This document shows, one piece after another, positions 13,029 through 57,109 of a DNA stretch of 57,109 bases. This DNA is from a virus (lineage: Duplodnaviria > Caudoviricetes). The notes below the pieces were generated by a model. That model saw only the letters and a list, made by a program, of their open reading frames with translations, was not told the DNA's origin and made no database searches. The stretch is taken from positions 1-57,109 of IMG/VR virus record IMGVR_UViG_3300050343_000003. One strand, written 5' to 3'. The position numbers were made by a program, and so were the translations under genes. The first letter of the stretch is position 1. Each line of letters opens with the position of its first letter.

Positions 13029-13057
13029 AGTTATACACTAAACATCCACTGTGTCAA
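13029..13057 (-). promoter_or_regulatory. Promoter-like motif TTGACA-N16-TATAACT
   Basis: Overlaps polA 3' end, upstream of 12994 gene; same architecture at three other sites. Confidence 0.7.
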
Positions 13058-15090
13058 GCCAATTCTCTCCTATCTTTGCTTCTAAAAGCATTGGTACATT
13101 CATCTTTATTCCATATGTCTCCTCTATTATTTTGTTTAAATCCTGGTTCATAGTCCACACCATTGACAATACTAAGTCTTTCTCGTCAGGGTGTACGTCA
13201 ACCACCATAGAATCGTGTACAGTATTGACTAAACACGACTTCATATGTCGCAAACGTTCATGCATCTCATTCAACACCACTGGTACTACGTCACCTGTAG
13301 CAAAGCCTTGCACTGGGTAGTTCTTTATCATAGTGAAGTGAGTTGGTATACCACTGTGACGTCTTGTCACATCAGGGAAAGCGTATTGTCTACCTGATAT
13401 GTTTGTTATCTTGAGGAAGCGTAGTGCCTCATCAGCTAGGTTACTGTGCCAGTTGGCTATCCCTTTGTACTTATCATTGAAGTGCTTGTAGTACGTAGCC
13501 TCTGCTTTTGTACGTCCGTAACCGCTTGCTCCAAAGAGTGGTGCGAACGTGTGTTCTTTAGCTGCTTGACGTGTTGTTGGTTGCCCTGCATCAGTAATAA
13601 CTTTTGCTGTGTAAGCATGTACATCGAAGCCAGTTGAAATTTCTTGCATCGCTGTTTCATCCTGTGCCAAGAACGCTGCTGTCCTAAATTCGAGTTGTGC
13701 AAAGTCTGCCTCCATAATTAATCCGTTGTCAAATCTTGATACAAATACTTTCTTTACTGGGAATGTACCTCCTCTTGGCATGTTCTGCATGTTGGGATTT
13801 CTTCCACTGAAACGTCCTGTGGCTGTAATGTGTTGGGTAAGTCCAACGTGCAGGAATCCATTGTCCTTTGTGTATGTTCGTATTCCGTTGACAAAAGCAG
13901 ATAGATAAGAAGAGATAGCATTGTGACGTTTAAGATCAGAAAGGAAACTGATAGCTTCGTCCATTCTATTTTGTTTAGCAGTTGAAGATAGTACATCTAG
14001 TTCATCCTTCCCTGTGTTAAATCCATTGGCACTGACCCACTTCTTGCTTGGTGCAGTGAAGCGTAGCCCTGCTACTTGTTCTGTGTTCTTTAGTTTGTAC
14101 CCTTGTGCATCACAATCCTTGCATCTATTAGCTCTTGCAAACTTTGTTCCATCTTTCTTAGTTCTGAATACCTTACCCTGCCCTTCGCAACTTGTGCAGG
14201 TGTAAGCCGTTGTCCTGTAGATCGGTGAGGAGTTGGCTGCAACGGCATCCTTAAACTCTTCTTGTGTTTGTGTGAACTCGAAGAGATCAGCCCATTCCTT
14301 CTTGTCATGTACCCTTCTGCTGAAGAGGACTTGTGACTTCTGTTCAGGTGACCGAAGGTTAATCGGAGTGTCGCCCATAACTTCCCTGACTTTCTTTTGC
14401 AGACGTGTTTCGATCTCAGCTTTCTCATGCTCGTACTCCTTTGCTACTCTGTCCAACTCTTGAAGATCGACTTTGAATCCAGCCATATAGATTTCTGTAA
14501 GGGTTTTACAGGTGTTGAAGGTAACACGTCTAACGGTATTGAGAGAGGCGGCATCGGGTTGGCTGTATTCTTTTTCTTGGGCATGGAACAACTCGCAAGT
14601 AGTAAGCAAATCATACTTGAGATAATCACAAAGCTCCTCATAAGGTATTTCATTTGTGTTCTTTCCTTCCTTAAAGTATTTCTTTAGTGTGTCTTGCTTT
14701 CTTAAATGTTAACTGCCTACGTTCCGCACAAGCCTCAAGGCTTAGACCTCTTCTCTGTCCACGATCTAGTATATACTCACCAAGCATAGTGTCATAGATG
14801 TCACCATCATATTTGTAACCACACTCCCACAACCACATCAAGTCGTGCTGTGCGTTGTGCATTATCAGTAGCTTGGTATTGTCTAGTGTCCACTGTATCT
14901 CTAGTCTTTCAAATCCTATATCATCTTTTGATTCGTTATGATCTAGTGTTCTGATAGAGAGAGTAGCTTCAGGATCATCGGCATCAAGATAGCCTACCTG
15001 TACTAGATAGTTGTCAGGTTCAAACGGATCTAGGTGTAACTTATCGTCACGCTTTGTTGTCGTATTCTCTACGTCTAACACCAACCTCAT
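13038..15090 (-). CDS. polA: Family A DNA polymerase with 3'-5' exonuclease and DnaJ-type zinc finger; split by an apparent 1-nt insertion near 14699
   Basis: Exo DVE, HNAQHDL, YDTML; CTSCEGQG and CKDCDAQG; TGRFSG, DFAQLEFR, KEHTFAPLFG, VHDS; removing one A joins both ORFs (~683 aa). Confidence 0.92.
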
Positions 15091-28784: not shown

Positions 28785-29216
28785 TTGGGCTTCTGGCAGT
28801 TACCTCTGCCACCCAAAGGACACAACAAAGAATGGCACGTAATAGCTAGGACTACTGTAAAGGTTCCGTTTGGCTATGAAGTAGATCCAAATAACGATAG
28901 ACTGCTTGTTCCCATAGAACATGAGTTAGATGCATTAGAGCTTGCAAAGCAACACCTAAAGCAGTATAGTTACAGAGCAGTAGCTCAGTGGTTGAGCAAA
29001 GAAGCAGACCGATACATATCACACATGGGTCTAAAGAAGAGAATAGAAGTTGAGCAAAGACGTAGAAAAGCATCTGCAATTAAACGTAAGCTTGCCAAGT
29101 GGCTCCAAGAGACGCTCTCGCAAATCGAGAAGCTCGAAACACAAGGAGTCGGAGCATACTCAGAAGCCTGTGGAAGTCGAAGCCCCCCAGATTCCAGCAC
29201 AGGTAGTAGCACCTGA
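28785..29216 (+). CDS. Hypothetical DNA-binding protein
   Basis: VPFGY...SYRAVAQWLS...ISHMGLKKR, recombinase-HTH-like. Confidence 0.55.
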   Translation: MGFWQLPLPPKGHNKEWHVIARTTVKVPFGYEVDPNNDRLLVPIEHELDALELAKQHLKQYSYRAVAQWLSKEADRYISHMGLKKRIEVEQRRRKASAIKRKLAKWLQETLSQIEKLETQGVGAYSEACGSRSPPDSSTGSST

Positions 29217-30630
29217 GTATGACGTAGATGAAGCACAGGAAGTTGTCTTTAAACCTAACGAAGGTCCACAAACATCTTTCTTGAGTTCGTCTGAGAGAGA
29301 AGTACTATACGGAGGGGCAGCAGGTGGTGGTAAATCATATGCTATGTTAGCAGACCCATTACACGGCCTTAACGATCCACACTTCTCTGGACTCCTTGTA
29401 CGACACACAACTGAAGAACTAAGGGAACTAATACAGAAGTCACAGGAGTTATACCCACGTGCCATACCAGGAATCAAATGGTCAGAGCGTAAGTCACAGT
29501 GGATATCACCTAGAGGTGGAAGACTATGGATGTCATATCTGGACAAAGATACCGATGTCACACGCTACCAAGGACAGGCTTTTAACTGGATTGGATTTGA
29601 CGAACTTACTCAATGGCCTACACCTTACGCTTGGGATTATATGAGATCACGTCTTCGTAGCGCACACGGTAGAGAACTAGGTTTGTACATGAGAGCTACA
29701 ACAAACCCAGGTGGTGCTGGACATGCTTGGGTAAAGAAGATGTTTATAGATCCTGCACCTGCAGGTAAAGACTTTTGGGCTACAGACATTGAAACAAGTA
29801 AAACAATTACATTCCCTAAAGGACACAGCAAGGAAGGTCAGCCTCTATTCAAGCGTAGGTTTATACCTGCATCTCTCTTCGATAACCCATACCTCGCTGA
29901 AGAGGGTGACTATGAGGCCATGCTCTTATCACTACCAGAGCATCAGAGGAAGCAACTCCTTGAAGGAAACTGGGATGTCAACGAAGGGGCAGCATTTCCC
30001 GAATTTGACAGAACTGCCCACGTTATCGAACACTTTGAAATCCCTAACAGTTGGGTACGCTTTAGGGCTTGCGACTACGGTTATGGTTCCCACACTGGTG
30101 TTCTTTGGTTCACTGTTGCTCCTGATGAGCAGCTTATAGTATATAGGGAAATGTATGTATCTAAAGTAACAGCTACAGACTTAGCTGATATGATACTAGA
30201 GGCAGAAGCTCAAGACGGTGGTATGAGATACGGTGTGCTTGATAGTTCTTTATGGCACAACCGAGGCGATACTGGGCCATCACTAGCTGAACAGATGAAT
30301 ATGAAGGGTTGCCGTTGGCGTCCTTCTGATCGTTCAAGAGGGTCACGTATCGCAGGAAAAAACGAGATACATAGGCGTTTGAAGGTAGATGACTTTATAG
30401 AAAAGCCTATGTTAGTATTTATGAATAACTGTGTAAACACCATAGCACAGATACCAAGCATCCCACTGGACAAAAAGAATCCAGAAGATGTTGACACCAA
30501 AGCAGAAGATCACTTGTATGATGCTCTTCGTTATGGTATAATGACTAGACCACGCAGTAGTATATGGGATTACAACCCAGCCAAACAACGATCTGGTTTC
30601 CAAGCCAGTGACTCAACATTCGGGTATTAA
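29050..30630 (+). CDS. terL: Terminase large subunit
   Basis: GGAAGGGKS Walker A, FDELT Walker B, TNPGG, DYGY...DHLYDALRY nuclease motifs. Confidence 0.95.
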   Translation: MSKDVEKHLQLNVSLPSGSKRRSRKSRSSKHKESEHTQKPVEVEAPQIPAQVVAPEYDVDEAQEVVFKPNEGPQTSFLSSSEREVLYGGAAGGGKSYAMLADPLHGLNDPHFSGLLVRHTTEELRELIQKSQELYPRAIPGIKWSERKSQWISPRGGRLWMSYLDKDTDVTRYQGQAFNWIGFDELTQWPTPYAWDYMRSRLRSAHGRELGLYMRATTNPGGAGHAWVKKMFIDPAPAGKDFWATDIETSKTITFPKGHSKEGQPLFKRRFIPASLFDNPYLAEEGDYEAMLLSLPEHQRKQLLEGNWDVNEGAAFPEFDRTAHVIEHFEIPNSWVRFRACDYGYGSHTGVLWFTVAPDEQLIVYREMYVSKVTATDLADMILEAEAQDGGMRYGVLDSSLWHNRGDTGPSLAEQMNMKGCRWRPSDRSRGSRIAGKNEIHRRLKVDDFIEKPMLVFMNNCVNTIAQIPSIPLDKKNPEDVDTKAEDHLYDALRYGIMTRPRSSIWDYNPAKQRSGFQASDSTFGY

Positions 30631-30632
30631 AT

Positions 30633-32744
30633 ATGGCAGAAGAAATGTTTGAAACAGATGATGTCGTTGCAGCAGAAGATGCAGACGATAAAATCTTTAA
30701 AGAAAAAGATAGTGTAATTGGCTTTATAAAAGAACGGTACAAAAGGTCTGAAGACTCTAGATATGCTGATGAGCAAAGATGGCTTAGAGCATACAGAAAC
30801 TACAGAGGCTTGTATGGTAGTGATGTACAATTTACTGACGCAGAGAAGTCTCGTATCTTTGTAAAGGTTACTAAAACAAAAACACTAGCAGCATATGGAC
30901 AGATAGTAGATGTACTATTTGGTAACAATAAGTTTCCTCTATCTGTAAATCCTACAGTACTACCTGATGGTGTTGCTGAGTCTGTACATATAAACATAGA
31001 CCCTAGAGTAGAAGCAGGACAGGCTGCTATTAGTGCAGCTATGGGATCACCAGCGCCAAAGCCCTATCTAATAGATGGCGATACAGAATTAAAACCTGGT
31101 GAAACACTTATGGATCTACAGGCTAGGCTAGGTGGCATGGAAGAGAAACTAGCACCTGTGTCTGAGAAGATTATAGAGGGTGATGGTACTACAGCCACGA
31201 CAGTTACATTTCATCCTTCTATGGTTGCAGCTAAGAAGATGGAGAAGAAGATCCATGATCAGCTACAGGAAAGCGGAGCTACTACACACCTAAGAAGTAT
31301 GGCATTTGAAATGGCACTACTTGGTACAGGTGTTATGAAAGGTGCGTTTGCTGTAGATAAAGAATACCCTAACTGGAATGAAGATGGCGAGTATGAACCT
31401 ATAGTAAAAACTGTTCCAGAATGTGACCACGTTTCTATATGGGATTTCTATCCTGACCCTGAAGCCAAAGACATGGATGAGGCAGAGTATGTTGTACAAA
31501 GACATAAGATGTCACGAACACAACTACGCAAACTAAAGACACGTCCTTTCTTTATGAATGACGGTGTCCAGCTTGCTATAGACAAAGGCCCAGACTACGT
31601 GCAGAAGTACTGGGAAATGACTATGGAAGACGATGACACCCAGCCAACATCAGAACGTTGGGAAGTATTAGAGTTCTGGGGTTTTGTTGATACTAAGTTA
31701 TTAGAAGAACATGGTGTAGATATACCTAGTGAGCTTAGTGACCTAGATGAAGTCAACTGTAACGTATGGGTATGTAACGATGAAGTACTACGATTTGTAC
31801 TAAACCCATTCAAGCCTACACGTATACCCTACTACGCTGTGCCATACGAGCATAACCCATACTCCTTCTTTGGCGTTGGTATTGCTGAGAACATGGATGA
31901 TACACAGACATTGATGAATGGCTTTATGAGAATGGCTATTGACAATGCTGCAATGTCTGGTAATCTAATCATAGAAGTAGATGAGACTAACTTAGTTCCC
32001 GGCCAAGACCTATCTGTATATCCTGGAAAGATATTCAGGAGACAGGGTGGCGCTCCAGGACAAGCTATATTTGGTACAAAGTTTCCAAACGTGGCACAAG
32101 AAAACATGCAACTATTTGATAAAGCGAGGGTACTAGCAGATGAGTCTACTGGATTCCCATCTTTTGCACATGGTCAAACAGGAGTTCAAGGAGTTGGGCG
32201 TACTGCTTCTGGAATCTCTATGCTTATGTCTGCTGCTAACGGTAGTATCCGTACCGTTGTTAAGAATGTTGATGACTATTTAATTAGACCATTAGGCAAA
32301 GCATTCTTTGCATTCAACATGCAGTTTGACTTTGATGAGAATATAAAGGGTGACTTAGAAGTACATGCGTCAGGTACAGAAAGCTTGATGGCTAACGAAG
32401 TACGTAGTCAACGTTTGATGCAGTTCTTACAAGTAGCACAGAATCCAGTACTTGCACCATTTGCTAAGATGGATTATATTATACGTGAGATTGCTAAGAG
32501 CATGGACTTAGATCCTGACAAGGTGACTAACTCTATTGCTGATGCAGCTATACAAGCTGAAATCTTAAAAGGTTTTCAAGCACCAGCGCCAACACCAGAG
32601 CAAGGCGTAGCTGGTCCTGAAGGTCAAGGCCCACAAAGTGTAGCTGATACTACTGGTGGTGGAGGATCACAAATAGGTATGGGTACAGCACCACTACCAG
32701 ATGAGCAAGGATTTACAGGTAATGCACCTCAAGCAGTTGGTTAA
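30633..32744 (+). CDS. Portal protein
   Basis: 703 aa after TerL; GTGVMK, WDFYPDP, FFGVGIAE, RTASGISML. Confidence 0.88.
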   Translation: MAEEMFETDDVVAAEDADDKIFKEKDSVIGFIKERYKRSEDSRYADEQRWLRAYRNYRGLYGSDVQFTDAEKSRIFVKVTKTKTLAAYGQIVDVLFGNNKFPLSVNPTVLPDGVAESVHINIDPRVEAGQAAISAAMGSPAPKPYLIDGDTELKPGETLMDLQARLGGMEEKLAPVSEKIIEGDGTTATTVTFHPSMVAAKKMEKKIHDQLQESGATTHLRSMAFEMALLGTGVMKGAFAVDKEYPNWNEDGEYEPIVKTVPECDHVSIWDFYPDPEAKDMDEAEYVVQRHKMSRTQLRKLKTRPFFMNDGVQLAIDKGPDYVQKYWEMTMEDDDTQPTSERWEVLEFWGFVDTKLLEEHGVDIPSELSDLDEVNCNVWVCNDEVLRFVLNPFKPTRIPYYAVPYEHNPYSFFGVGIAENMDDTQTLMNGFMRMAIDNAAMSGNLIIEVDETNLVPGQDLSVYPGKIFRRQGGAPGQAIFGTKFPNVAQENMQLFDKARVLADESTGFPSFAHGQTGVQGVGRTASGISMLMSAANGSIRTVVKNVDDYLIRPLGKAFFAFNMQFDFDENIKGDLEVHASGTESLMANEVRSQRLMQFLQVAQNPVLAPFAKMDYIIREIAKSMDLDPDKVTNSIADAAIQAEILKGFQAPAPTPEQGVAGPEGQGPQSVADTTGGGGSQIGMGTAPLPDEQGFTGNAPQAVG

Positions 32745-32913
32745 TGATAAAGAATGCTACGAGCAGTTTCAACAGCATATAGATGAACTAATTAAAACTA
32801 GACAACGTGCGCTAGAGACAGCTAATGAACCTCATGTTATGCATAGACAGCAGGGTGCAATAGACGTACTAAGAAAACTAAAGTTACTGAGGGAGACAGT
32901 AAACAGTGTCTGA
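32722..32913 (+). CDS. Small helical protein after portal
   Basis: HRQQGAI..LRKL; position typical. Confidence 0.65.
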   Translation: MHLKQLVNDKECYEQFQQHIDELIKTRQRALETANEPHVMHRQQGAIDVLRKLKLLRETVNSV

Positions 32914-35900
32914 TAAAGTAGGCAAAAAAACAGGAAAGAAAACCCAAGCAGGTAAGGATGTTTACAAAACACCAGAGGGTAAAAACGTTTCTGAGATTTC
33001 TAGAACTTTTAAGTATAAAGGTAAGTGGATAAATGTGCCTAGTATACATAAAGGACGTGAGTATGATCAGGCTACTTTAAAGTTAATGTTAGAAGCTGAG
33101 ATAATTAAACCCACAAGTATACATGATAATAGAACAAAAGCAGAGGCTGCGGCAAGAGATCGTAGTGACAGATTAAAGTTTGATGAAGGTGGTATGGCAA
33201 CTGAAGAAGACCGCCTTAACTTTGTAAGATCTTACGGTGTAGAACCTGTAACAGACATAAACACTGACCTTACATTCAAAGATGCTGCTAAGACTATAGC
33301 TGAGATGACTCCTATAATAGGAGATGCTATGGCAGCAAAAGAGATCTATGACGAGCTTCAGAAAGAAGATCCTGACTACCGCTTTGTTGCTGTACTAGGT
33401 GGCGCTGCTCTAGTAGGTGCAGTTCCGGGTATCGGAGATGTTGCTGCTAAAGGTATACGTAACGCAGCAGATATGATAAAACGTATAGAGGTTGACCCTG
33501 ATGCTTTAGGTTCACTAGGTGGTAACATTAGGTTAAAGCCTAAAGTAAAAGAAGACGTACCAACTGTAGAAGCTGCAGGTCTTACAGATGAAGCTATTGA
33601 AAAGTGGCGTAAAAAGAATGCTACATCAGAAGAGTTCCGTAAAAAGTTAAAAGGCCGTAATGAAGAACTACAAGAGTTAGCTTCAGGAGTAGAAGAAGGT
33701 AGAGTATTTACTAGTACCTATAGAGATCGTGCAGATGAACTTAGACCTATACGTGTAGTAGAAGAAGTACCAAAGCCAGCTACATTTGTAGAAGCAGTAA
33801 GTGCTTTGAATGCAGGTAAAAGAAAACTACCAATGGTAGGACTTAACAAGTCTATTCCTGATGGTGATATGATAGATGCTAGACTAGACATTGATGCTTA
33901 TACAGATTATGATGTTTGGATTCCTACTCTAAAACACTCAGGAAAAACAATGTATAAACCTGCTGTTGTATTAGAAGATGTAAAGTTTATACAGCCAGAT
34001 GGTCCACAACCTAGAAAGGCTTTAGGTGTTGCAAAAGGAAAAGGTAAAGCACCTTTTGCTGTTATGACAGGTAAGTATGTTGAAGCTACAGACGATGAAG
34101 CATACAAGCTTGCACAGGATGTTTTTGACAATCCTGAATTTACACAGGTAGGTTATGACCCTACACGTAGGGGCTTCTTCTATGATAGAGAAACAGGAGA
34201 AGCAATAGTAGCAGCAGATACAGTAGTTCAAGTAGGACACTTAGTATTAGCACGTAATGCAAAAAAGATGGATGCAGAAGCATTCCCATTTAGTGAGGGC
34301 GGTATGGCTTTAGAAGAACAGATGAACATGAACTTTGGTGATGTACCTGATAATACAATAGGTATAGATCCTGTGTCAGGTAATGAAATACCAATGGGTT
34401 CTACAGCAGAGAATGTACGAGATGATATACCAGCTAACCTTAGTGAAGGTGAGATTGTTGTAGCTGCTGACGTAGTAAACTTTCATGGTGTAAAACTATT
34501 TGAAGACCTACGTGCTGAAGCTAAGATGGGCTATCAAGATATGGCACAAGACGGACGCATGGGTGGTGAACCTATGGATGATGACATGGGCATGGACATA
34601 GAACTTTCTGAGTTAGACTTAGAAGTAATGGATGATGAAGCACCTGTACAAATGAACAGGGGTGGTACATCTATGGCTGACTACAAAGATGTAGGAAAGA
34701 ATAGAAATATAAAAGCTCCTAAACGTACTGCTCCACGAAAAACACACGCAGAAATAATGGCTCAAGCTTTTGGTTCTAATACTGATTCACGTAAAGACAA
34801 CTCTCCTGTAGCTATATCTAAAAGAGTTCAAGCCAGAAAGAATGAACCAAAGAATAGATTTGAAGCTATACGAAATAGACTAAGAGATGTATTTAAAGAT
34901 GATGATGACAATCAATCTAGGTTTGACTTTGGATTTAGCGGTAACCCTATGGAACGTGCAGCACGTAAGTATGGGTCACCAGCATCAGCAACAAAGAATG
35001 AATCACTAAGAGCAGGTCAAGTAGCAGGTACATATACAGGAGGCCAAGAGCCTGTAAATAACTCAGTACGTTACTATGAACAACCATTCTACAAAAGACT
35101 TATGGAAGGTTTAGGCTTTGATGAAGGTGGACTTGTACCAGACGAAGATACAAACCTCATAGGTGGTGAAGCCCAGTTCAATCAACCGTTCTATGCCCCT
35201 GATCAAAAGGGTGGCTTTGACATGGAGAACGCCTATGTAGACTATGGTGATAGTACAGGTGGTGGTCCTCTACTTGAGATGCGTGAGTACATGAACGATG
35301 AAGGTCACAGAATATTTATTACCTTTATAGATGGTGTAGCACAAATGGAAATACCTGCTGGTTACTATCCAGTGGGTGAAGGTGTAGCTGTAGCTCCTAC
35401 CCCTGCAATAGGCGGTAGCGGTGGTTCTGATTCTGGAGGAGGTATGGATATGCCAACACCAGATCCTATTAACTATAAAGAGCTAAGTCTTGAAGAATTA
35501 ACTGACATGGTAAATAGTCAAGGTGATTTGAAAGGTGATGTAATAGCAACAGGTTTGGGATTACTAAATCCTTTAATGGGCGCAGCAGTTAAGTTTGCAA
35601 TGTGGAATCAAACAAGACAAGTAAAGAGAGAGATAGAACGTAGATTAGCATCTAATGAAACTTCAAAGGTAGATATTCAGCGCTATCAAAACTTACTTGA
35701 GATTGCAGAAAGAGAAACACCTACGCTACTAGATAAGATACTAGGAAGAGACTTTGAAAAGACTGTAGGTCAAATACCTAAACCAGTAACACCTGATACA
35801 GATTTTGCTGATCCTACTATGGCTGGTGGACAACCTTACACGCCGGGAGCAGGAAGTGTTTACACACCAAATGATCAAACAGCAAGTCAAACTACAACTC

Positions 35901-36265
35901 CGGGAGTAGATGATGGGCTTAGTAATGAGCTTAAAACACAAGCTGATCAGATATCTGAAGAGGCTGCTAAAAATTCCTTTACTAAACAGCAAACTCAAAC
36001 AGAGAATATGCTACAGCAACAAAGAGATTCAAGTTCTGATAACCAACAAGAGGCAATAGATAGAGCGCGTGACATAGCCAACGTTTCTAAGGAAACTGGT
36101 TCCAGTATAGCACAAGTAGGTAGAGATATCGCCCCATCTACTGAGACTAAAAGTCCTGACTTTAATGATCCTAGAAGAGGCGGAGCGCCAAGCACAAGAC
36201 GTACCTATGGAGGCGGTGGAAAAAACAAAGGCGGCATGATGAAGAAGAAGAAAAAATCCAAATAA
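32906..36265 (+). CDS. Large modular head-region protein with xxxGG-delimited segments
   Basis: 1119 aa; FDEGG, FSEGG, MNRGG, FDEGG, KNKGG; DDIPANLSEGEIVV core; pre-toxin-TG-like segment. Confidence 0.75.
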   Translation: MSDKVGKKTGKKTQAGKDVYKTPEGKNVSEISRTFKYKGKWINVPSIHKGREYDQATLKLMLEAEIIKPTSIHDNRTKAEAAARDRSDRLKFDEGGMATEEDRLNFVRSYGVEPVTDINTDLTFKDAAKTIAEMTPIIGDAMAAKEIYDELQKEDPDYRFVAVLGGAALVGAVPGIGDVAAKGIRNAADMIKRIEVDPDALGSLGGNIRLKPKVKEDVPTVEAAGLTDEAIEKWRKKNATSEEFRKKLKGRNEELQELASGVEEGRVFTSTYRDRADELRPIRVVEEVPKPATFVEAVSALNAGKRKLPMVGLNKSIPDGDMIDARLDIDAYTDYDVWIPTLKHSGKTMYKPAVVLEDVKFIQPDGPQPRKALGVAKGKGKAPFAVMTGKYVEATDDEAYKLAQDVFDNPEFTQVGYDPTRRGFFYDRETGEAIVAADTVVQVGHLVLARNAKKMDAEAFPFSEGGMALEEQMNMNFGDVPDNTIGIDPVSGNEIPMGSTAENVRDDIPANLSEGEIVVAADVVNFHGVKLFEDLRAEAKMGYQDMAQDGRMGGEPMDDDMGMDIELSELDLEVMDDEAPVQMNRGGTSMADYKDVGKNRNIKAPKRTAPRKTHAEIMAQAFGSNTDSRKDNSPVAISKRVQARKNEPKNRFEAIRNRLRDVFKDDDDNQSRFDFGFSGNPMERAARKYGSPASATKNESLRAGQVAGTYTGGQEPVNNSVRYYEQPFYKRLMEGLGFDEGGLVPDEDTNLIGGEAQFNQPFYAPDQKGGFDMENAYVDYGDSTGGGPLLEMREYMNDEGHRIFITFIDGVAQMEIPAGYYPVGEGVAVAPTPAIGGSGGSDSGGGMDMPTPDPINYKELSLEELTDMVNSQGDLKGDVIATGLGLLNPLMGAAVKFAMWNQTRQVKREIERRLASNETSKVDIQRYQNLLEIAERETPTLLDKILGRDFEKTVGQIPKPVTPDTDFADPTMAGGQPYTPGAGSVYTPNDQTASQTTTPGVDDGLSNELKTQADQISEEAAKNSFTKQQTQTENMLQQQRDSSSDNQQEAIDRARDIANVSKETGSSIAQVGRDIAPSTETKSPDFNDPRRGGAPSTRRTYGGGGKNKGGMMKKKKKSK

Positions 36266-36313: not shown

Positions 36314-37282
36314 ATGGCAGAAATGCAACACGAAAAAGTAAACATAAAGAAAGTGCCTATGCAATCAGCATCGTATGCACGTAACGAAGAACGCATCAAA
36401 CAAGATGAAGCAGAATTAGCAGAGCTAATGAAGCAAGATAGAGAAGCTAAAGGCATAGTAGATGAGACAGAAGAAAAAACCTCTGAAGCTGAATCCAGTA
36501 GCGAAGAGCCTAAAGCTGAACCAGTACAGGCAGAAAGTGATACCAAACAAGAAGAGAAACCAGAAGCCAAAGCACAAGAAGATGATGAGCTAAGTGCTGA
36601 AGAGAAAAACTTCAAGAAACGTTATGGTGATTTACGCAGACATCAACAGGACAAAGAGAAAGAGTTTAATGCTAAGATAGAAGCATTAGAATCTCAACTA
36701 TCTAAGGCTGCTAATAAACAGCTTGTGTTACCTAAGACTGATGAAGAGCTAGAAGCTTGGACTAAAGAGTATCCTGATGTTGCATCTATTATAGAAACTA
36801 TAGCTGATAAGAAATCTAAAAGTGCAGCTAAAGATATAGAAGATCGTATGATTGAACTAGAAGAGATGCGACAAGATGCACATCGTGATAAAGCAGAAGC
36901 AGAACTTGTTAAGATACATCCTGACTTTATAGAGATACGTCAAGACGATACGTTTCATAATTGGGCAAAGGAACAACCTAAGTGGGTACAAGATGCTTTG
37001 TATGAAAACGTTGATGATGCAAAATCTGTAGCACGTGTAATAGACTTATACAAAATTGACAAAGGTATTACTAACAAGAAGAAAGCTAAACCTGATGAGA
37101 AAGCAGCAGCATCTTCTGTCAAGACAAAAAGTGCAGCAGCACCAGAACCAGATGAGTCAGCTAAGATGATTCGTGAGTCTGAGGTAGCTAACATGTCAAT
37201 CAAAGAATATGAGAAGAGGGCAGATGAAATCATGGATGCCCAACGTAACGGAAACTTTATTTATGATATGTCAAGAAAGTAG
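36314..37282 (+). CDS. Capsid scaffolding protein
   Basis: Acidic coiled coil, FKKRYGDLRRH, HPDF; directly before capsid gene. Confidence 0.8.
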   Translation: MAEMQHEKVNIKKVPMQSASYARNEERIKQDEAELAELMKQDREAKGIVDETEEKTSEAESSSEEPKAEPVQAESDTKQEEKPEAKAQEDDELSAEEKNFKKRYGDLRRHQQDKEKEFNAKIEALESQLSKAANKQLVLPKTDEELEAWTKEYPDVASIIETIADKKSKSAAKDIEDRMIELEEMRQDAHRDKAEAELVKIHPDFIEIRQDDTFHNWAKEQPKWVQDALYENVDDAKSVARVIDLYKIDKGITNKKKAKPDEKAAASSVKTKSAAAPEPDESAKMIRESEVANMSIKEYEKRADEIMDAQRNGNFIYDMSRK

Positions 37283-37504: not shown

Positions 37505-38578
37505 ATGGCTATAGCACTCGCATCGAGTAAGAGTGGGTTTGACGGCAATTTCAGCCCGATTATCTATTCCAAACAAGCACAGATCGCTTTACGTAAAGCT
37601 TCTGTTGCAGCAGCAATTACCAACAGTAACTACTTTGGTGACATTGCAAATCAAGGGGATGTTGTACGCATTCAAAAAGAGCCTGACGTAACAGTTAACA
37701 CTCTTGAGCGTAAAACAGCAATCTCTGTAGAAGACCTAGATGATTCTGAGTTCTCACTCACCATTGATCAAGCTAACTACTTTGCTTTTAAAATGGATGA
37801 CATTGAAGACCAGTTTGCAAATGTTGATTTCGTAAGCCTAGCTGCAGATAGAGCAGCATATAAAATGGCTGACGCAATGGACGTAGACTTACTTCGTTAT
37901 ATGTCAGGTCATGCAGCAAATGGTACTTATGCAACTACTGTATCAGGTACAGCACAGCACCCAACAGCGGGCGAAATAAATGGTGAATTTTTAAAGGTTA
38001 ACCAATTAGACGCTACTGACTTTGGTGCATTAGGTTCAGCAGACGCTGCATCTACAGCATATGCTACTGGTGATTCTATTCCACTAGCAGTACGTTTACC
38101 TGGCGCTACAGCATTATCAACAGCTACTGTATCACCTTTGTCAGTTGTCGCACGTATGGCACGTCAAATGGATGTAGCAAACGTCGACTCACGTGGACGT
38201 TACTTAGTTGTTGACTCTATCTTCATGGAGATGATGAAAGATGAAGACTCACGTCTTTTGAATGCTGACTTCGGTGGATCAGGTCTACAGAACGGTCTAG
38301 TAATGAACAACTTACACGGCTTCAGAGTCCATGTATCTAACAACTTACCTTCAAAAGGTACAGGTGCAGGTACATCAGGCGCACTAGCACAAGACGCAAA
38401 CTTTGGTGTGATCTTAGCTGGACAAGAAGACGCAGTTGCCTCTGCAGAGCAGATCAACAAAGTTGAGAACTACAGAGATCCTGACTCATTTGCAGACATT
38501 GTACGTGGTATGCACCTTTACGGACGTAAGATTCTACGCCCACAAGGACTTGTCACAGCACATTACAACGCTGCATAA
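37505..38578 (+). CDS. Major capsid protein
   Basis: NFSPIIYSK...GDVVRI...FKMDDIE...RDPDSFADIVRGMHLYGRKILRP; strong RBS. Confidence 0.92.
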   Translation: MAIALASSKSGFDGNFSPIIYSKQAQIALRKASVAAAITNSNYFGDIANQGDVVRIQKEPDVTVNTLERKTAISVEDLDDSEFSLTIDQANYFAFKMDDIEDQFANVDFVSLAADRAAYKMADAMDVDLLRYMSGHAANGTYATTVSGTAQHPTAGEINGEFLKVNQLDATDFGALGSADAASTAYATGDSIPLAVRLPGATALSTATVSPLSVVARMARQMDVANVDSRGRYLVVDSIFMEMMKDEDSRLLNADFGGSGLQNGLVMNNLHGFRVHVSNNLPSKGTGAGTSGALAQDANFGVILAGQEDAVASAEQINKVENYRDPDSFADIVRGMHLYGRKILRPQGLVTAHYNAA

Positions 38579-40478: not shown

Positions 40479-40946
40479 ATGGCATACATAGGACAATCAC
40501 TAACCGAAGGTACAAGAAGAGCGCAAACATATACAGCTACTGCTGGACAAACCACATTTAATGCTGTATACTCTATTGGAAACGTAGACGTATATCAAAA
40601 CGGAATACTATTACAACCTGCTGATTACACAGCTACCACAGGAACTACAGTTGTGTTAGGCGCTGCTGCTGCACTAAACGATGAGATGACTATTGTATCT
40701 CACAACATATTCAGCGTAGCAGATGCACCCACACTATCAGGTGGTGGTACATTTGCAAGCAGCATTAGAGCTACACTGTTTGATACAACACAGAACACAA
40801 CTAAGACAGCGTTGTTTCAGACTAATGATCAGACTATGGGTACAGACACAACTATACCTAGCTCACACAATGCTAGTTGTAATGGACCTCTAACAATAGC
40901 GTCAAGCATAACGCTTACAGTTAATGGGAACTTGACAATCATATGA
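40479..40946 (+). CDS. Tail fibre-associated protein
   Basis: MAYIG...YTATAGQTTF...VYQNGILL...DYTA. Confidence 0.7.
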   Translation: MAYIGQSLTEGTRRAQTYTATAGQTTFNAVYSIGNVDVYQNGILLQPADYTATTGTTVVLGAAAALNDEMTIVSHNIFSVADAPTLSGGGTFASSIRATLFDTTQNTTKTALFQTNDQTMGTDTTIPSSHNASCNGPLTIASSITLTVNGNLTII

Positions 40947-41467
40947 GTACTTTACACGTAGAAAACTTAAAAGGTCTTAGCTCTGGCGGCAATGCCAATA
41001 AGATTATCGTACCGTCTGGTCAGACGCTTTTAGCAGGTGGACATGTTGTTCAGGTTGCTCAATATACCAGTGCGTCTAATGTCACAAATAGTACAACATC
41101 TACTGTACAAGCAATGATAACAGGTACATTTACTCTTAAAAACTCAAGTAATAAAGTTTTAGTAACAATGAATTGTATTACTAGAGCAGGAAGAAGTAGT
41201 GCTGCTGGTGTTAGAATTGCTATGTATAGAGGTGCAGTTGCTGACGCATCAAGTGTAAAAATTACAAGTGGTATAGAGCCACAGATTTACACAACAGACA
41301 GTGGTACAGAACAATATGCAATAAATTCTTTGCACCACCTAGATACTCCAAACGCTTCGTCTACTACTTATTCTCTTGGTTTTTGGAAACATCCTAGCTC
41401 TGGTGATGTTAAAGTTATGGGCGAGTTTTTGAATACTACCATTATTCTTCAGGAGGTGGCGGTATGA
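40943..41467 (+). CDS. Tail fibre tip paralog 1
   Basis: MSTLHV...GHVVQV...ILQEVA. Confidence 0.7.
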   Translation: MSTLHVENLKGLSSGGNANKIIVPSGQTLLAGGHVVQVAQYTSASNVTNSTTSTVQAMITGTFTLKNSSNKVLVTMNCITRAGRSSAAGVRIAMYRGAVADASSVKITSGIEPQIYTTDSGTEQYAINSLHHLDTPNASSTTYSLGFWKHPSSGDVKVMGEFLNTTIILQEVAV

Positions 41468-41985
41468 GCATCCTAAAGGTAGACACCATAAACGAAAAGA
41501 CTAGTGGTAATGGTGTGGCTATTCCAGGTCATATTATTCAAATGGTTAATACATCTTGGAGTACTCAAACAGCTATTACATCTCAAAGCGCTACAGCAAT
41601 AACTGGAGCTTCTTTAGCAATAACTCCAAAGTTTAGCACCAGTAAGATACTTGTTATGGTTAATCTTAGCCTGAGAATTAAAGACCCTGACACTAGTTAT
41701 GCTAACTGCGGCCTTGAAATTTTAAGAGGCTCAACTCAATTACAAACAATTGCTGGAGATAATTCTGGGCCTTTTGAGATAGGTATTTATGACGTTGGTG
41801 GGGGCGGTGGAGAGCTTAACTCTAGATATGCAAATAATATTGTAGATAGTCCTAGTACAACTTCTGCTACAACCTACAGCGTCAAAGGTAAAATATATAG
41901 TACTACAGGTCCTACTCTAACTATAAACCAAGGGGATACTACTAATGGACAGTCGTCAATTATATTAATGGAGATAGCCCAATGA
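41464..41985 (+). CDS. Tail fibre tip paralog 2
   Basis: MSILKVD...GHIIQ...ITPKFSTSKILV...LMEIAQ. Confidence 0.7.
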   Translation: MSILKVDTINEKTSGNGVAIPGHIIQMVNTSWSTQTAITSQSATAITGASLAITPKFSTSKILVMVNLSLRIKDPDTSYANCGLEILRGSTQLQTIAGDNSGPFEIGIYDVGGGGGELNSRYANNIVDSPSTTSATTYSVKGKIYSTTGPTLTINQGDTTNGQSSIILMEIAQ

Positions 41986-42503
41986 GTTCTATCTTAAAAG
42001 TTGATACGATACAAACCACCGCAGGGGTGGCTCCTACTACTAAAGATTTAGGTTTTGCAGCAGGGTCAGTTATACAGACACAAGTTGCTAGGTTTAGTGG
42101 AGGTTCAGCAAGTATGAGTACAAGTTCTTATACTAGCAGTGGTAGAAGCGTAACTATTACTCCAAGATTTGCTAATAGTTTAATTTTAATAAGGTATACT
42201 GCAACTTCATATATTAACAGTGGCACTTATGGATACTTTACATTCTATAGGGGTAGTACAAATTTGTATAACCAAAGTGGTTACAGTACCAACCCTTCTC
42301 ATCAAGCTTTAATACAACTTGGTAGTGCTACTGGTGATGCTTATTTTCCCAGTACAGGAGAGTTTGCGGATAGTAGTCATAACTCAACTAGTGCCTTAAC
42401 TTATACTTTGTATGGAAAAAGAACTTCAGGTTCAGGCTCAGTATATTGGCCTCCTGGTTCATCTGATGGAGCCACATTTACAGCTACGGAGATAGCACAA
42501 TGA
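41982..42503 (+). CDS. Tail fibre tip paralog 3
   Basis: MSSILKVD...GSVIQ...ITPRFANSLILI...ATEIAQ. Confidence 0.7.
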   Translation: MSSILKVDTIQTTAGVAPTTKDLGFAAGSVIQTQVARFSGGSASMSTSSYTSSGRSVTITPRFANSLILIRYTATSYINSGTYGYFTFYRGSTNLYNQSGYSTNPSHQALIQLGSATGDAYFPSTGEFADSSHNSTSALTYTLYGKRTSGSGSVYWPPGSSDGATFTATEIAQ

Positions 42504-53390: not shown

Positions 53391-55547
53391 ATGGCTAAAA
53401 AATTTATGGGTTTCAAGCCTGAGACAATGACAAACAAGATACTACCAGCGTTGGGCTATAGTGGACCTAGTGATCAAAAGTCTATCAATGCTTTCCTAGC
53501 AGCTAGTCCTGCAGCAGCAGCCAAGATGGGTAAGTACACTATGGCAGCTAGGCAGATGGTTGAGGGTAAAGTTGTTAATGCCTATAGGGGAAACTATTCT
53601 GCAGCAGATGCGGCACGTGATATGTCAAGTATGGGTATCCAAAATTTATCAGGGAAAGCTGCACCAATTCCTGCTAGAAAAGGTGGTACTGCAGCACAAC
53701 AAGCAGCCCATAGAGCTTTGTCTGTATCAAACCACCAGAAGTTTTTAGCTCAACAAGCTAAAGATAGCGACAGTAGAAACGATTCAAGACGAGTACAAGC
53801 CTCTCCTGTAATTAACCCTAATCCTGTTACCGTTCCCGGCGCTGGAACCACTGTTACAAACCCAGATGGTTCAACCACTACTACAAACCCTGACGGTTCA
53901 ACCACTACTAAATTTCCAGGTCCAACTGGTACACAAATGCCAAGTGGGTCACTACTATCAAAACAGATAGGAGATGACCCAAATGCTATGGTAACTAGAG
54001 CAGGAGTTGTAGCAGCAGATGGTGGACCAAACGCACTCATAGCAGGTGGTACTGGTCAGGCAGGTACAGCAGCACAAGCAGGTGTAACAACAGCAGCAGG
54101 GGCTGCAACAGCAGAAGAAATTGCTGCTATGTCACCAGCACAGTATCAAGCTTACCAATCACAGCAAGCACTACAATCAGCCTTACAGAATTACTTAGCA
54201 GCACAAGGGCAGGTTGGTCCTGACTCTATTGTAGATCCTGCACAAATGGACCCTTTTACAGCAGCAGCACTACAGCTACAGGCTGCACAGATAGGAGCGC
54301 CACAAACAGTACAAGCTCCTAATCCTTTACAGGTATCACAGGATCAGCTAGTGTCTGGCTCTACTGTAGATCAAACAAGAGTTGATTCTACTATAGCAAA
54401 GAACCAAGCTGCATCTGTAAAGACAGAGCTAGACACTTTGATGCAGGACTTCCAAGGTGGTAACACACCCTCATGGGCTGCAGGAGCTATGCGTAATGCA
54501 TCAGCAGCAATGGCTGCACGTGGGTTGTCAGCTTCTAGTATGGCAGGTATGGCTATTGTACAGGCAGGTATGGAAGCAGCACTACCTATCGCACAGATAG
54601 ATGCATCCAACAAACAAGAAGTAGCTTTGTTAAACGCTGAACAACGTGCAAGCTTTTTAGGTATGGAGTTTGACCAAGAGTTCCAAGCCAAGGTAAAGAA
54701 TGCAGCACGTATATCAGAGATAGCTAACATAAACTTTACAGCAGAACAGCAGATAGCGTTAGAGAATGCTAGGATGGCACAGACTGTAGACTTAGCTAAC
54801 CTAGATGCTAGGCAGGGTAAAGTTTTAGCTGATGCAGCTACACTTTCACAGATAGATCTAGCTAACCTGAACAACAGGCAGCAAGCTAACGTACAGAATG
54901 CTAAGTCATTCTTACAGATGGATCTAACTAATCTAAGTAATGAGCAGCAGATGCAAGTTCTTAAAGCGCAGGAAACTGCTCAAGCTATACTCAGTGATGG
55001 TGCTGCAATAAATGCTTCAAGACAGTTCAATGCTTCATCCCAGAACCAAACAGATCAATTCTTTGCAGGACTAGGTTCACAGGTACAGAGGTTTAACGCA
55101 GAGCAGATCAACGCTATCAACCGTTTCAATGCAGGTGAGACTAATGCAGTATCACAGTTCAACACTGCACAAACTAATGCACGTGACCAGTTCAATGCAC
55201 AGAACCATCTTGTAGTTGCACAAGCTAACGCAGCATGGGCGCAAGCTATTACTACAGCAGCCAACGCAGCAGCTAACCAAGCTAACAGAGATGCAGCACT
55301 AGTAGCTAACAATCTTACATCCACAATGTATAATAATGCTATACAACGTGAGCGTGATCTGTTAGCATGGGCATGGCAGTCTGGCGAAAGCGAGAGAGAC
55401 AGAATAACAAAAATACTAGAGGCAGAGATAGATGCAAATGGTGAATCACAATCACTGCTTGAGACTTCTGCTGGTAATTTTGTTGGTGAGCTTGTCACAG
55501 GTGCAGCCTCTTATATCATCGGTAAGTATCTACCATTCCCTAAGTAA
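53391..55547 (+). CDS. Putative internal virion protein
   Basis: 718 aa, Ala/Gln/Asn-rich with QFNA and NL.N.QQ repeats. Confidence 0.7.
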   Translation: MAKKFMGFKPETMTNKILPALGYSGPSDQKSINAFLAASPAAAAKMGKYTMAARQMVEGKVVNAYRGNYSAADAARDMSSMGIQNLSGKAAPIPARKGGTAAQQAAHRALSVSNHQKFLAQQAKDSDSRNDSRRVQASPVINPNPVTVPGAGTTVTNPDGSTTTTNPDGSTTTKFPGPTGTQMPSGSLLSKQIGDDPNAMVTRAGVVAADGGPNALIAGGTGQAGTAAQAGVTTAAGAATAEEIAAMSPAQYQAYQSQQALQSALQNYLAAQGQVGPDSIVDPAQMDPFTAAALQLQAAQIGAPQTVQAPNPLQVSQDQLVSGSTVDQTRVDSTIAKNQAASVKTELDTLMQDFQGGNTPSWAAGAMRNASAAMAARGLSASSMAGMAIVQAGMEAALPIAQIDASNKQEVALLNAEQRASFLGMEFDQEFQAKVKNAARISEIANINFTAEQQIALENARMAQTVDLANLDARQGKVLADAATLSQIDLANLNNRQQANVQNAKSFLQMDLTNLSNEQQMQVLKAQETAQAILSDGAAINASRQFNASSQNQTDQFFAGLGSQVQRFNAEQINAINRFNAGETNAVSQFNTAQTNARDQFNAQNHLVVAQANAAWAQAITTAANAAANQANRDAALVANNLTSTMYNNAIQRERDLLAWAWQSGESERDRITKILEAEIDANGESQSLLETSAGNFVGELVTGAASYIIGKYLPFPK
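53856..53909 (+). repeat. 27-bp tandem duplication (TNPDGSTTT x2)
   Basis: ACAAACCC[AT]GA[TC]GGTTCAACCACTACT twice. Confidence 0.85.
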
Positions 55548-55557
55548 AGGTATAACA

Positions 55558-57109
55558 ATGTACGATCCTAAGTTTACACAAAAACAAATGTATGACCAGT
55601 ACGGTAGCTCTCGTGAGACTACTAAGAATGTTACTAAATCAACAAGAAGCAGTGGGTACAGTGGTAATAATCCTAATGAAGATGCTGCAGTAACAAGAGG
55701 CATAGGGGCAAAGCCTCCTAGTTTTGGTGGTGGACAGGACAACAATCCAAACAGGGATGAGTATGAAAACAAACCTACTGTAGCTAAAGTATATGAAAAG
55801 ACTGTAGATCTATTCAAGTCCTTTGGAGCTAAAGAACCAGAAGCTTTGATAGTTGATGGCAAGAGAGTATATCAAGGGCCACTGTTTAGTGGGTATGATC
55901 CTACTGTACGCATAGGACCGTTTGGTGGGGATGCTGGTAAGAAGCAGTATCGTTTTGGTATGCCCTTCCTTGGGGAAGTATCACCAAGCTACCCATCTCC
56001 TACGTTACCATCTGGTGATAACAACCCTGCTCTAAATATGTTTGGTGTAAGACGTGGCTTTACACGTGGAACAGATATGCCAGATCTATCTGTATCACCA
56101 GAAGCACCAGCCAACATGGACCCTATGACTAGGGTATTGTCACAAGCAATGCTTCCACAAGCCTCTCCCGAAATGGTAGACTATACAGTTGGATCACTTA
56201 GAGATAAAGAAAACCTTATGACAATAGTAGAGGATCTGAATAAAAGAGGTGTTGATGTTACACTTGAAGAGGTAGCAAAAGCAAATAACCTTCCTGTTAA
56301 CGCTGACGGAACACCTACTAATCCCTTTGTTGAAAACGGTGAAGTAATAAAAATACCTACAACAAGAAAGCCTACTGTACCTACTGAGTTCATGGACAAC
56401 GCAACTAAAGCTATGCTGCGTGATGCAACACCGATTAAAGCTAACTTTATAACAGAAAGTCTAAGTTCTTTAACAGGTAAACTATCCAGCGCTACTAAAG
56501 ACCTTGCCAAGGAAACTAAAGATTTAGTAAATTCATATACTACTTCTACTACTAAAGGATTAGCAACAAAAGATACAAGTACTTATAAGGTAGAACGTGG
56601 CGATACCATGTACGACATTGCTAAAAGGCAAGGTGTGACTTTAGATAAACTAATGGAAGCTAACCCTGATGTAGATGCAGATAAGATAGGTGTTGGTCAA
56701 GTAATTAGTATACCAAGAGGAGGTGAGTTAAATAATTTACCTTCTGATGTACAAGCAGAAGTTGCAACAGCTATTAATAATGGTGATGTAAAAAATGAAG
56801 AAGATCTCACCCTAGCTCTTTATGATGCTTCAACTTTTAAAGGTATACCACCTATTAGACAAGGTGAGAATCTTATAGAGTATCTTGCTAGAAGTGGTAT
56901 GATAGGTGTTGATGAAGCTGATCCACAGTTTATTGAAGCTTTCAAAGAATTTGGTACTGGATCAAATCCTAAAACTAGAGCTTGGTGTGCTAACCTATTA
57001 GGAAACTTGATAAGGAAATCAGGCGGTTCATTACCTTTTGATAATAAACCACAAAGTGAACAAAATGCCTATATGGAAGGTTCTCAAAACTTTGAACGCC
57101 TTGGTAAAA
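55558..57109 (+). CDS. N-terminal part of LysM/CHAP peptidoglycan hydrolase (wraps to 1..422; 657 aa total)
   Basis: Open from ATG 55558 to window end; LysM YKVERGDTMYDIAKRQGVTLDKLMEANP...GQVISIP; CHAP AWCAN. Confidence 0.85.
   Translation, partial: MYDPKFTQKQMYDQYGSSRETTKNVTKSTRSSGYSGNNPNEDAAVTRGIGAKPPSFGGGQDNNPNRDEYENKPTVAKVYEKTVDLFKSFGAKEPEALIVDGKRVYQGPLFSGYDPTVRIGPFGGDAGKKQYRFGMPFLGEVSPSYPSPTLPSGDNNPALNMFGVRRGFTRGTDMPDLSVSPEAPANMDPMTRVLSQAMLPQASPEMVDYTVGSLRDKENLMTIVEDLNKRGVDVTLEEVAKANNLPVNADGTPTNPFVENGEVIKIPTTRKPTVPTEFMDNATKAMLRDATPIKANFITESLSSLTGKLSSATKDLAKETKDLVNSYTTSTTKGLATKDTSTYKVERGDTMYDIAKRQGVTLDKLMEANPDVDADKIGVGQVISIPRGGELNNLPSDVQAEVATAINNGDVKNEEDLTLALYDASTFKGIPPIRQGENLIEYLARSGMIGVDEADPQFIEAFKEFGTGSNPKTRAWCANLLGNLIRKSGGSLPFDNKPQSEQNAYMEGSQNFERLGK

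Follow-up and report, generated by a model that had tools for sequence, protein, structure and literature searches.

In the long-tailed phage lambda, the ruler protein gpH leaves the virion ahead of the DNA, loses a C-terminal piece of ~14 kDa from a Gly-rich region and is resolved over residues 818-849 as a trimer on the hub protein gpI, with residues ~690-817 unresolved, according to a 2025 paper in which the cleavage site and its catalyst are stated as unknown (PMC12617516). The tape measure protein pb2 of phage T5 is cut after R1127, a position mapped by mass spectrometry (PMC10038345). The ejection proteins of podoviruses (T7 gp14-16 and P22 gp7/20/16) are large, mosaic, partly disordered and stored in the head. 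MuF and SPP1 gp7 minor head proteins are encoded beside the portal gene and carry variable fused domains. Here, we analysed a stretch of viral DNA of 57,109 nucleotides (IMG/VR record IMGVR_UViG_3300050343_000003, its whole length being referred to as the window), which is a near-complete HMO-2011-type podophage genome, and focused on a protein of 1119 amino acids (aa) encoded between its portal and scaffold-like genes. We consider it probable that this is a mosaic internal virion protein, a tape-measure-like ejection or cargo protein in which a recurring Gly-Gly motif provides module joints or docking tags.

The HMO-2011-type phages form a marine viral group that has been described as dominant and widely distributed (PMC9038755). 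The portions available of the genomic papers on HMO-2011-type and RCA phages make no mention of the post-portal gene, and the HMO-2011 listing in the phiRIO-1 paper consists of tail tubular protein B only. Ejection proteins and tape measures are known kinds of protein; the Gly-Gly joint module described here is uncatalogued in Pfam, no family of which covers it. A tape-measure-like carrier would offer an account of how short-tailed phages might deliver hydrolases, methyltransferases and unknown domains, and the module would link the delivery machinery of long-tailed and short-tailed phages.

Segments and predicted structure of the post-portal protein

The original prediction described five segments set apart by five Gly-Gly motifs, each at a change of sequence character. 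All five motifs were located, every one of them in a linker of low confidence in the AlphaFold model (predicted local distance difference test, pLDDT, <50) at the end of a domain, and pLDDT, charge and hydropathy together bore out the five-segment layout. The gene, its segments and its motifs are as follows:

32906..36265, plus strand: gene of the 1119-aa mosaic post-portal protein (P0001), GTG start
32906..33178, plus strand: accessory N-terminal basic domain, aa 1-91, small and folded (pLDDT 51-83), net charge +10
33179..33196, plus strand: motif 1, FDEGGM, aa 92-97
33386..33442, plus strand: aa 161-179 (VAVLGGAALVGAVPGIGDV), a stretch that is hydrophobic and rich in Gly (Kyte-Doolittle 1.75 over 19 aa), candidate membrane segment
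33542..34288, plus strand: folded helical plus alpha/beta domain, aa 213-461, pLDDT 76-92, distantly Phage_L5_gp82-like
34289..34306, plus strand: motif 2, FSEGGM, aa 462-467, upstream edge of the universal core
34307..34651, plus strand: universal core, aa 468-582 (conserved part 468-548), with QMxMxF, DPVSGN, VRDDIPANLSEGEIVV, a long helix, GRMGGEP and an acidic tail
34652..34669, plus strand: motif 3, MNRGGT, aa 583-588, downstream edge of the universal core
34670..35116, plus strand: accessory basic disordered segment, aa 589-737, net charge +11
35117..35134, plus strand: motif 4, FDEGGL, aa 738-743
35135..36220, plus strand: C-terminal part, aa 744-1105, with a small beta domain (788-830), a three-helix bundle (855-940) and a disordered acidic region
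36221..36262, plus strand: motif 5, KNKGGM, aa 1106-1111 (36221-36238), with a Lys tail to aa 1119

The full-length model had a mean pLDDT of 52, its folded parts being aa ~20-90, 213-460, 788-830 and 855-940. The helices predicted over aa 98-212 were of low confidence and include the hydrophobic Gly-rich stretch, in the region of which P156, Y158, G171 and P174 were invariant across 83 relatives. Within the helical plus alpha/beta domain, aa ~344-441 matched Phage_L5_gp82 (PF25735) at 17 bits (E 0.0057), where the Pfam gathering cut-off is 27 bits; relatives scored 30.1 bits (P0119) and 26.8 bits (P0084) against the same family. Past KNKGGM, only MKKKKKSK remains of the protein.

The full-length protein matched no Pfam family and no PHROG family, and a Foldseek search of its model against the PDB gave no match at E<=0.001. 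A wide VIA-align search returned only generic helical-bundle matches to aa 855-947 and barely probed the other domains. A crAss cargo family suggested by the ESM Atlas (0.82) was discarded, as it lay below a trustworthy level and found no support in hmmscan.

Apparent kinship of the core with tape measure proteins

Sequence comparison indicates that the core is related to a module lying near the C-terminus (~100 aa before it) of many tape measure proteins, among them lambda gpH. The module runs from a hydrophobic-x-x-GG motif through QMxMxF, DPVSGN, VRDDIPAxLSEGExVxPADVV, a long helix, GRIGGEP and an acidic tail to a second hydrophobic-x-x-GG. In the window, aa 506-535 (DDIPANLSEGEIVVAADVVNFHGVKLFEDL) show the succession D-x-[IV]-P-A-x-L-[ST]-x-G-E-hydrophobic-V and then A-x-x-V...G...L, in a sequence that was invariant among relatives, and motifs 2 and 3 supply the hydrophobic-x-x-GG on either side. 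Across the HMO family, hydrophobic-x-x-GG stood within 45 aa upstream of the core in 107/130 and recurred ~95 aa downstream of DPxSGN.

A tape-measure motif of this kind had been cited as background in the original prediction, and both a pattern search of IMG/VR and matches to tape measure PHROGs confirmed it. At least 128 IMG/VR stretches matched a degenerate DNA pattern encoding D-[ST]-[IV]-P-A-x-L-[ST]-x-G-E-[FY]-V, the typical form over the 80 distinct contexts listed being hydrophobic-x-x-GG-x-V-x-GPGTGTSDSIPAxLSDGEFV...A-x-A-V...G...L...N...F-A-x-G-G-x-V. Among the matches listed, 62 of 77 open reading frame (ORF) fragments were scanned; most matched tail length tape measure PHROGs, several with strong N-terminal tape-measure matches. 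In 59 of the 80 contexts listed, the distance from the pattern to the ORF end was 130 aa or less, and the tape-measure contexts among them had hydrophobic-x-x-GG upstream in 45/78 and downstream in 47/67. In lambda-like tape measures, the module directly follows the Tape_meas_lam_C domain. We found no literature pairing GEFV with a tape measure.

Profile-profile alignment (hhalign) of the HMO-type core (70 sequences) with the tape-measure modules (54) gave a probability of 97.8% (E 9.5e-13, 50 columns). When no pattern selection was involved, the best PHROG matches of the window, HMO-2011 and CRP-3 cores were sub-threshold (E 0.0015-0.5; window E 0.045-0.09), and they fell on the tape measure PHROGs that the tape-measure modules match, at identical profile positions. 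Bridging forms were also found: the tape-measure spelling GPGTGVSDSIPARLSDGEFV is carried by genes in the slot of the window gene, in the order portal (phrog_332/1216), ~77-aa ORF, the gene itself and phrog_13678, and these genes match tape measure PHROGs at E about 1e-9 to 1e-12. The marine podophage loci concerned (L161, L114, L150, L098, L116 and L130) share both slot and module with the window; their post-portal genes differ in being only 226-480 aa long, with one module near the C-terminus and no accessory cassettes. Other carriers of the module adjoin genes annotated as DNA ejection protein or internal virion protein, and the common denominator of the carriers is that they are proteins leaving the particle through the tail.

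Lambda gpH itself has F733ATGGF, HRGEFV at 752, Y778ATGGY and, six residues from its end, M842RDGGL, and the tape-measure module profile aligned to its residues 727-787 with a probability of 93.9%. Its succession of motif, core, motif and, at the end, a further motif is that of the window protein. The two differ in that gpH has a single module near its end and is a long-tailed phage's ruler, whereas the window protein is from a short-tailed phage; and its gene lies between portal and scaffold genes in a podophage-type genome, unlike that of a long-tail ruler, which follows the tail-assembly chaperones.

The module was also seen in more than one copy per protein. Some large tape-measure-like ORFs on IMG/VR contigs, of 90-142 kb and other lengths, hold two to three copies (L118/L119, L144-L146, L099 and L101/L102), and the 1699-aa tape measure of PDB 8zdo chain S holds two, at 960-1028 and 1409-1472. 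In Rhizobium phage RHph_TM29, EVB31_085 (L014, 2417-3505), a 362-aa 'virion structural protein' matching phrog_8003, ends in the core-like DDVPANLNVGEFVIPEDVVSWYG; its gene has an internal-virion-protein gene on one side and very large genes on the other, including one with PHROG matches of DarB-like and endolysin type.

Orthologues, gene order and exchange of cassettes

A tblastn search of the protein against 50,697 phage records returned 14 records, representing 13 distinct genomes (HMO-2011 twice), all of HMO-2011 type and all with the gene annotated as a hypothetical protein. None covered 80% of the protein, and the part common to all 14 was aa ~462-548 only. Across the 13 genomes, gene order was alike while orthologue length ranged from 377 aa (CRP-235) to 1395 aa (CRP-9), the conserved core lay anywhere from 3% to 89% of protein length, and in CRP-738 the orthologue was divided into two genes. 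Eighty IMG/VR loci showed the succession TerL, portal, ~65-aa ORF, big gene, scaffold-like gene and capsid gene; a homologous ORF of 58-81 aa directly preceded the big gene in 59 of the 66 loci with a complete 5' end, and the scaffold-like gene directly followed it in 63 of the 68 with a complete 3' end. The 55 complete IMG/VR genes encoded 427-2156 aa, with the core inside the first 40 residues in 15. In a phmmer search of 1.84 billion representatives, the core was found in 2728 proteins at E<=1e-3 (2232 at E<=1e-10), starting at positions from residue 1 to beyond 1100, a freedom of placement that, together with the slot between portal and scaffold, is unlike gpH. As judged from these comparisons, the core of ~120 aa is the only universal part of the protein.

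Around the core, the orthologues carry recognisable cassettes: a cell-wall hydrolase (SleB-type, Hydrolase_2) in CRP-2 and CRP-3, a methyltransferase in CRP-3, DUF7178 in CRP-3, CRP-212 and CRP-738, and the Phage_L5_gp82-like domain. The latter region of the window protein (aa 213-461) is replaced by a methyltransferase-like domain in some relatives (e.g. P0079), and the N-terminal basic domain occurs in 6/120 close relatives, the window counted. Alignments of these proteins indicate that cassette exchange in the post-portal gene is real, with N-terminal domains, basic segment, hydrolase and methyltransferase gained or lost; this turnover, along with the kept synteny, agrees with the earlier proposal of an exchangeable cassette gene between portal and scaffold.

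Two further features of the orthologues were observed. Those of CRP-13 (L005), CRP-345 (L012), HMO-2011 (L001), ctYwJ313 (L003) and CRP-1 (L013) have a C-terminal domain of ~90 aa without a Pfam match, which starts with Cys right after a poly-Gly/Ser run (e.g. ...GGGGGGCCFIMLEARYG); this Cys-first start recalls, by analogy, self-processing domains. In CRP-3 (L008), CRP-212 (L011), CRP-235 (L010) and CRP-738 (L006), QMxMxF, which otherwise separates the GG motif from DPVSGN, is replaced just ahead of the core by a Cys-rich run, HGGMPCGCGG[DE]CDGSCG, which may be a metal-binding variant of the joint.

Some apparent members were set aside. P0275 gave 15 matched stretches but proved to be a false positive, a protein of PASTA repeats, and short 'stand-alone core' ORFs on long contigs were rejected as split genes, being frameshift or adaptor artefacts. 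Several short core-only metagenome proteins (e.g. P0145) end in junk and are assembly artefacts, a frame broken upstream being the only reason for their start at the Met that follows GG; one of them ends in what we take to be translated sequencing adaptor.

Abundance and conservation of the Gly-Gly motif

The pattern [FMK]x[ERK]GG occurs five times in the protein, compared with a mean of 0.30 in shuffled versions, none of 3000 of which reached five, and F.EGG[ML] occurs three times, compared with 0.0013 expected from shuffles. Elsewhere in the window, among the other ORFs of at least 100 aa, F.EGG[ML] was found as single copies in three unrelated ORFs and clustered nowhere. Conservation of the motifs had been set beforehand as a test, and among 120 close metagenomic relatives the two Gly columns were kept in 119 and 119 (motif 2), 112 and 103 (motif 3), 120 and 119 (motif 4) and 118 and 108 (motif 5), whereas the flanks of the motifs varied. 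Motif 1 is confined to the six relatives, the window among them, that carry the N-terminal domain, in the form KFDEGG[ML]. At the C-terminal end, most relatives read F-E-K-G-G-L followed by a K-rich run.

Over 185 non-identical family members, we counted 2.59 motifs per protein versus 0.26 in shuffles. A motif lay within 25 aa of the C-terminus in 52 of them, 45 of which had a basic tail. The residue preceding GG varied (E, K, Q, R, D or H), and the residue following it was Leu in 39% and Met in 21%.

The composition of the motif bears on the possibility that the E-G-G codons (GAR GGN GGN) are Shine-Dalgarno sites, or fossils of such sites, before a Met, from which nested, N-terminally shortened proteins would be made. 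Met does stand at +1 or +3 after GG at the core edge, short orthologues start exactly there, and GAAGG resembles the phage's own AAGGA-type ribosome binding sites. Nevertheless, GGA, the codon needed for GGAGG, is scarcer at the first Gly than at the genes' other Gly codons (10% versus 22%), so that selection for Shine-Dalgarno sites was rejected on codon usage, and Leu is commoner than Met after GG. Internal starts would also leave the conserved aromatic residue at -3 and the C-terminal copies unexplained, and the same motif flanks the module in tape measures. We regard this explanation as extremely improbable.

Breakpoints relative to the motif

Mapping of indels on a multiple sequence alignment proved too noisy, and breakpoints were therefore mapped by pairwise analysis of BLAST high-scoring segment pairs (HSPs). 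Several of the breakpoints fell on motifs. At the N-terminal side, 95 of the 120 relatives begin 3-5 residues ahead of TEEERL, the sequence that follows motif 1. The segment between motifs 3 and 4 is missing in the P0044 group (aa 579-734) and replaced in the P0077 group (aa 587-753). Family-wide, the dominant alignment ends on the window protein were aa 461 (109 HSPs) and aa 581 (148 HSPs), corresponding to motifs 2 and 3, and of the endpoint clusters with at least 60 HSPs, 173/337 were within 10 aa of a motif versus 19 under the null. Short natural forms that overlap the small ORF begin with MALEEQM, in which M is the residue after GG of the long forms, and at two split loci the upstream gene ends in ...GMAQGGFVA* and ...KFSGGGLVRE*, that is, in the motif plus 3-4 residues.

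Such a distribution might arise if the motifs were passive joints, conserved core edges and flexible Gly hinges at points of recombination or fusion that nothing reads. The strongest statistics indeed come from the two motifs that bound the core, many breakpoints lie elsewhere and the unweighted test considered below is nearly null, and a short run of identical DNA shared by the coding sequences of motifs 1 and 4 (GATGAAGGTGG) could favour in-frame exchange. Yet GG is nearly invariant at motifs 3-5 in the 120 relatives while the flanks drift, the motif is in ten-fold excess over shuffles in the 185 members, and 45 of these have it at a true C-terminus, followed by a basic tail, just as it recurs in the gpI-bound C-terminus of gpH. 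Since invariance, excess and C-terminal copies speak for selection on the peptide itself, we find passive joints quite improbable.

Cleavage near the motif in tape measure proteins

The sequence of T5 pb2 reads NSFVPR before its cut and AEGGMMYPG after it, and the cut lies two residues before EGGMM. It resembles the window protein in having A-E-G-G-M-M, near which it is cut, after a hydrophobic stretch; the difference is that the cut comes before the motif and not after GG. As a homologue of the module, pb2 was rejected (probability 0.4%). For gpH, a mass of 14 kDa would put the start of the fragment near residues 710-725, upstream of F733ATGGF, and M842RDGGL falls inside the stretch bound to gpI. 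By analogy, cutting near Gly-Gly joints would have precedent, yet both lambda and T5 appear to cut upstream of the motif.

Cleavage is central to a second explanation, already raised in the original prediction, in which the protein is a polyprotein. A protease of phage or host would cut it at each motif or beside it, either while the head matures or once the protein has been ejected, and so release N-domain, globular domain, core, basic segment and C-terminal part as separate products. The motif ends every module, the last included, all motifs are in exposed linkers of low confidence, and tape measures are cut near it, as in gpH and pb2 (PMC12617516 and PMC10038345). Moreover, short forms start after GG and split-form genes end 3-4 residues after it, so that the putative products match natural stand-alone proteins. 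Set against this, no protease was recognised among the 55 window ORFs scanned against PHROGs, many of which lack annotation, and the next gene looks like a scaffold. The residues that precede GG fit no known specificity, true C-termini, from which a cut would take off no more than 3-9 residues, retain the motif, and neither comparison places the cut as proposed: that of T5 precedes the motif in an unrelated segment, and the lambda fragment starts upstream of F733ATGGF. We thus judge a polyprotein to be rather unlikely.

A related proposal is that the Gly-Gly module is a self-contained processing-and-docking element common to tape measures and podophage ejection proteins, which directs and perhaps catalyses cuts beside the joints. 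If so, it would dock the chain in the exit channel, one gene would deliver a changeable set of separate effectors, and the cleavage of lambda gpH to gpH* would be explained. We consider this proposal unlikely. The module does single out concrete residues in gpH, the protein whose cleavage site and catalyst PMC12617516 states as unknown.

Proposed role of the protein and its motifs

We favour, as said, a mosaic, tape-measure-like internal virion protein, and infer its presence in the virion, its ejection and a docking role of the motif. The protein would be built into the procapsid near the portal, as suggested by the place of its gene in the head-assembly block, the overlap with the small ORF, the disordered linkers, the hydrophobic segment and the enzyme cassettes of orthologues. 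At infection it would be expelled through the tail, carrying its accessory domains along, as the kinship with the tape-measure module suggests, and would in this way do the tape measure and ejection job in a short-tailed phage. The motif would form the edge of the core module and the C-terminal tag of each accessory cassette, and would therefore mark where cassettes are joined, gained, lost or split. It may act as a short joint or docking peptide, on the model of gpH peptide 818-849, with its MRDGGL, on gpI. Three observations point this way: true C-termini, at which a cut would serve no purpose, retain the motif; the copy at 842-847 of gpH belongs to the peptide seen on gpI; and the core does not fold when predicted alone, as would be expected if it folds on a partner or as an oligomer. 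The protein may additionally be cut near the motif.

Several points weigh against this explanation. At normal thresholds, the whole protein matches neither a family of ejection proteins nor one of tape measures, the core profile found only chance matches and no tape measure among PDB sequences, and direct alignment of the HMO core to lambda gpH was not significant; the tape-measure link consequently depends on profile-profile comparison, weak PHROG matches and bridging forms, and the module set used in hhalign was chosen by the 13-residue pattern. The core predicted alone, from a diverse alignment of 70 sequences, stayed unfolded (mean pLDDT 55.7). No enzyme domain was recognised in the window's own protein, either with the whole protein against Pfam and PHROG or with six segments against Pfam at E<=10. 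T7-style large proteins and a transglycosylase protein are already present and could serve as ejection proteins. As for the motif, supported breakpoints at about aa 210, 779, 123 and 250 are away from it, the CRP-738 gene is not split at it, and in the unweighted family-wide test a motif was at most 10 aa away for 280 of 4351 endpoints, compared with 245 under the null (standard deviation 12); the enrichment at high support largely restates that the universal core is motif-flanked. The claim that breakpoints coincide with the motif accordingly held for the edge of the N-terminal domain, the core edges, the basic segment and the short and split forms, and failed for these other positions and for the unweighted test. 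On the alignments, then, the motif would only partly mark where cassettes are joined, gained, lost or split.

Compared with the podovirus ejection proteins of T7 and P22, the window protein is likewise large, mosaic and partly disordered, its orthologues carry peptidoglycan hydrolase domains and it has a hydrophobic segment. It is unlike them in matching no family and in that its gene lies in the head-assembly block and not after the tail tube genes; the T7-like position in the window is taken by a separate set of large genes, along with a transglycosylase protein.

The same location invites the view that the protein is a head-assembly factor, a MuF-like or scaffold-accessory protein that works at the portal vertex while the particle is assembled and does not enter the host. 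Its slot between portal and scaffold, the conserved coupling to the small ORF, and an acidic tail after the core and a Lys tail that could bind scaffold or DNA would suit such a factor. Still, unlike MuF proteins, whose slot the original prediction had invoked, the window protein gave no Phage_Mu_F match in Pfam, either at E<=0.01 as a whole or at E<=10 in six segments, nor did any other head-morphogenesis family appear even at E up to 10. The hydrolase and methyltransferase cassettes of orthologues make sense only if delivered, and the module to which the protein is related belongs to proteins that exit by the tail. A head-assembly factor therefore seems very improbable, and the tape-measure-like carrier remains our preferred explanation.

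Neighbouring genes and other features of the window

The plus strand of the window carries the structural block, and the minus strand carries genes for ribonucleotide reductase, a split DNA polymerase, primase, helicase and integrase. The neighbours of the post-portal gene are as follows:

29050-30630: large terminase gene (TerL), in the structural block before the portal gene
30633..32744, plus strand: portal gene, PF23899 SU10_portal E 1.3e-25, phrog_332/1216
32701..32913, plus strand: 70-aa helical ORF, overlapping the start of the 1119-aa gene
36314..37282, plus strand: gene of a scaffold-like acidic helical protein, phrog_13678 E 3.8e-59
37505..38578, plus strand: major capsid protein gene, phrog_267 E 8e-53

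A Shine-Dalgarno-like GAGGGAG run precedes the start of the 1119-aa gene. The 70-aa ORF matched no family in Pfam and PHROG scans, and is likely a partner or chaperone of the big protein.

The DNA polymerase (13038-15090, minus strand) is made up of two ORFs of 523 aa and 139 aa, each matching phrog_17. Four consecutive ORFs of 155-174 aa (40479-40946, 40943-41467, 41464-41985 and 41982-42503), with overlapping stops and starts, may be tandem paralogues; one of the set matches the tail fiber phrog_6942. The unannotated large ORFs 1388-2902, 2904-6410 and 53391-55547 resemble a T7-style set of internal virion proteins. Both ends of the window cut ORFs, 3-422 being open at its 5' end and 55432-57108, which has transglycosylase/endolysin PHROG matches, at its 3' end, and the window appears to represent an entire genome in circularly permuted form.

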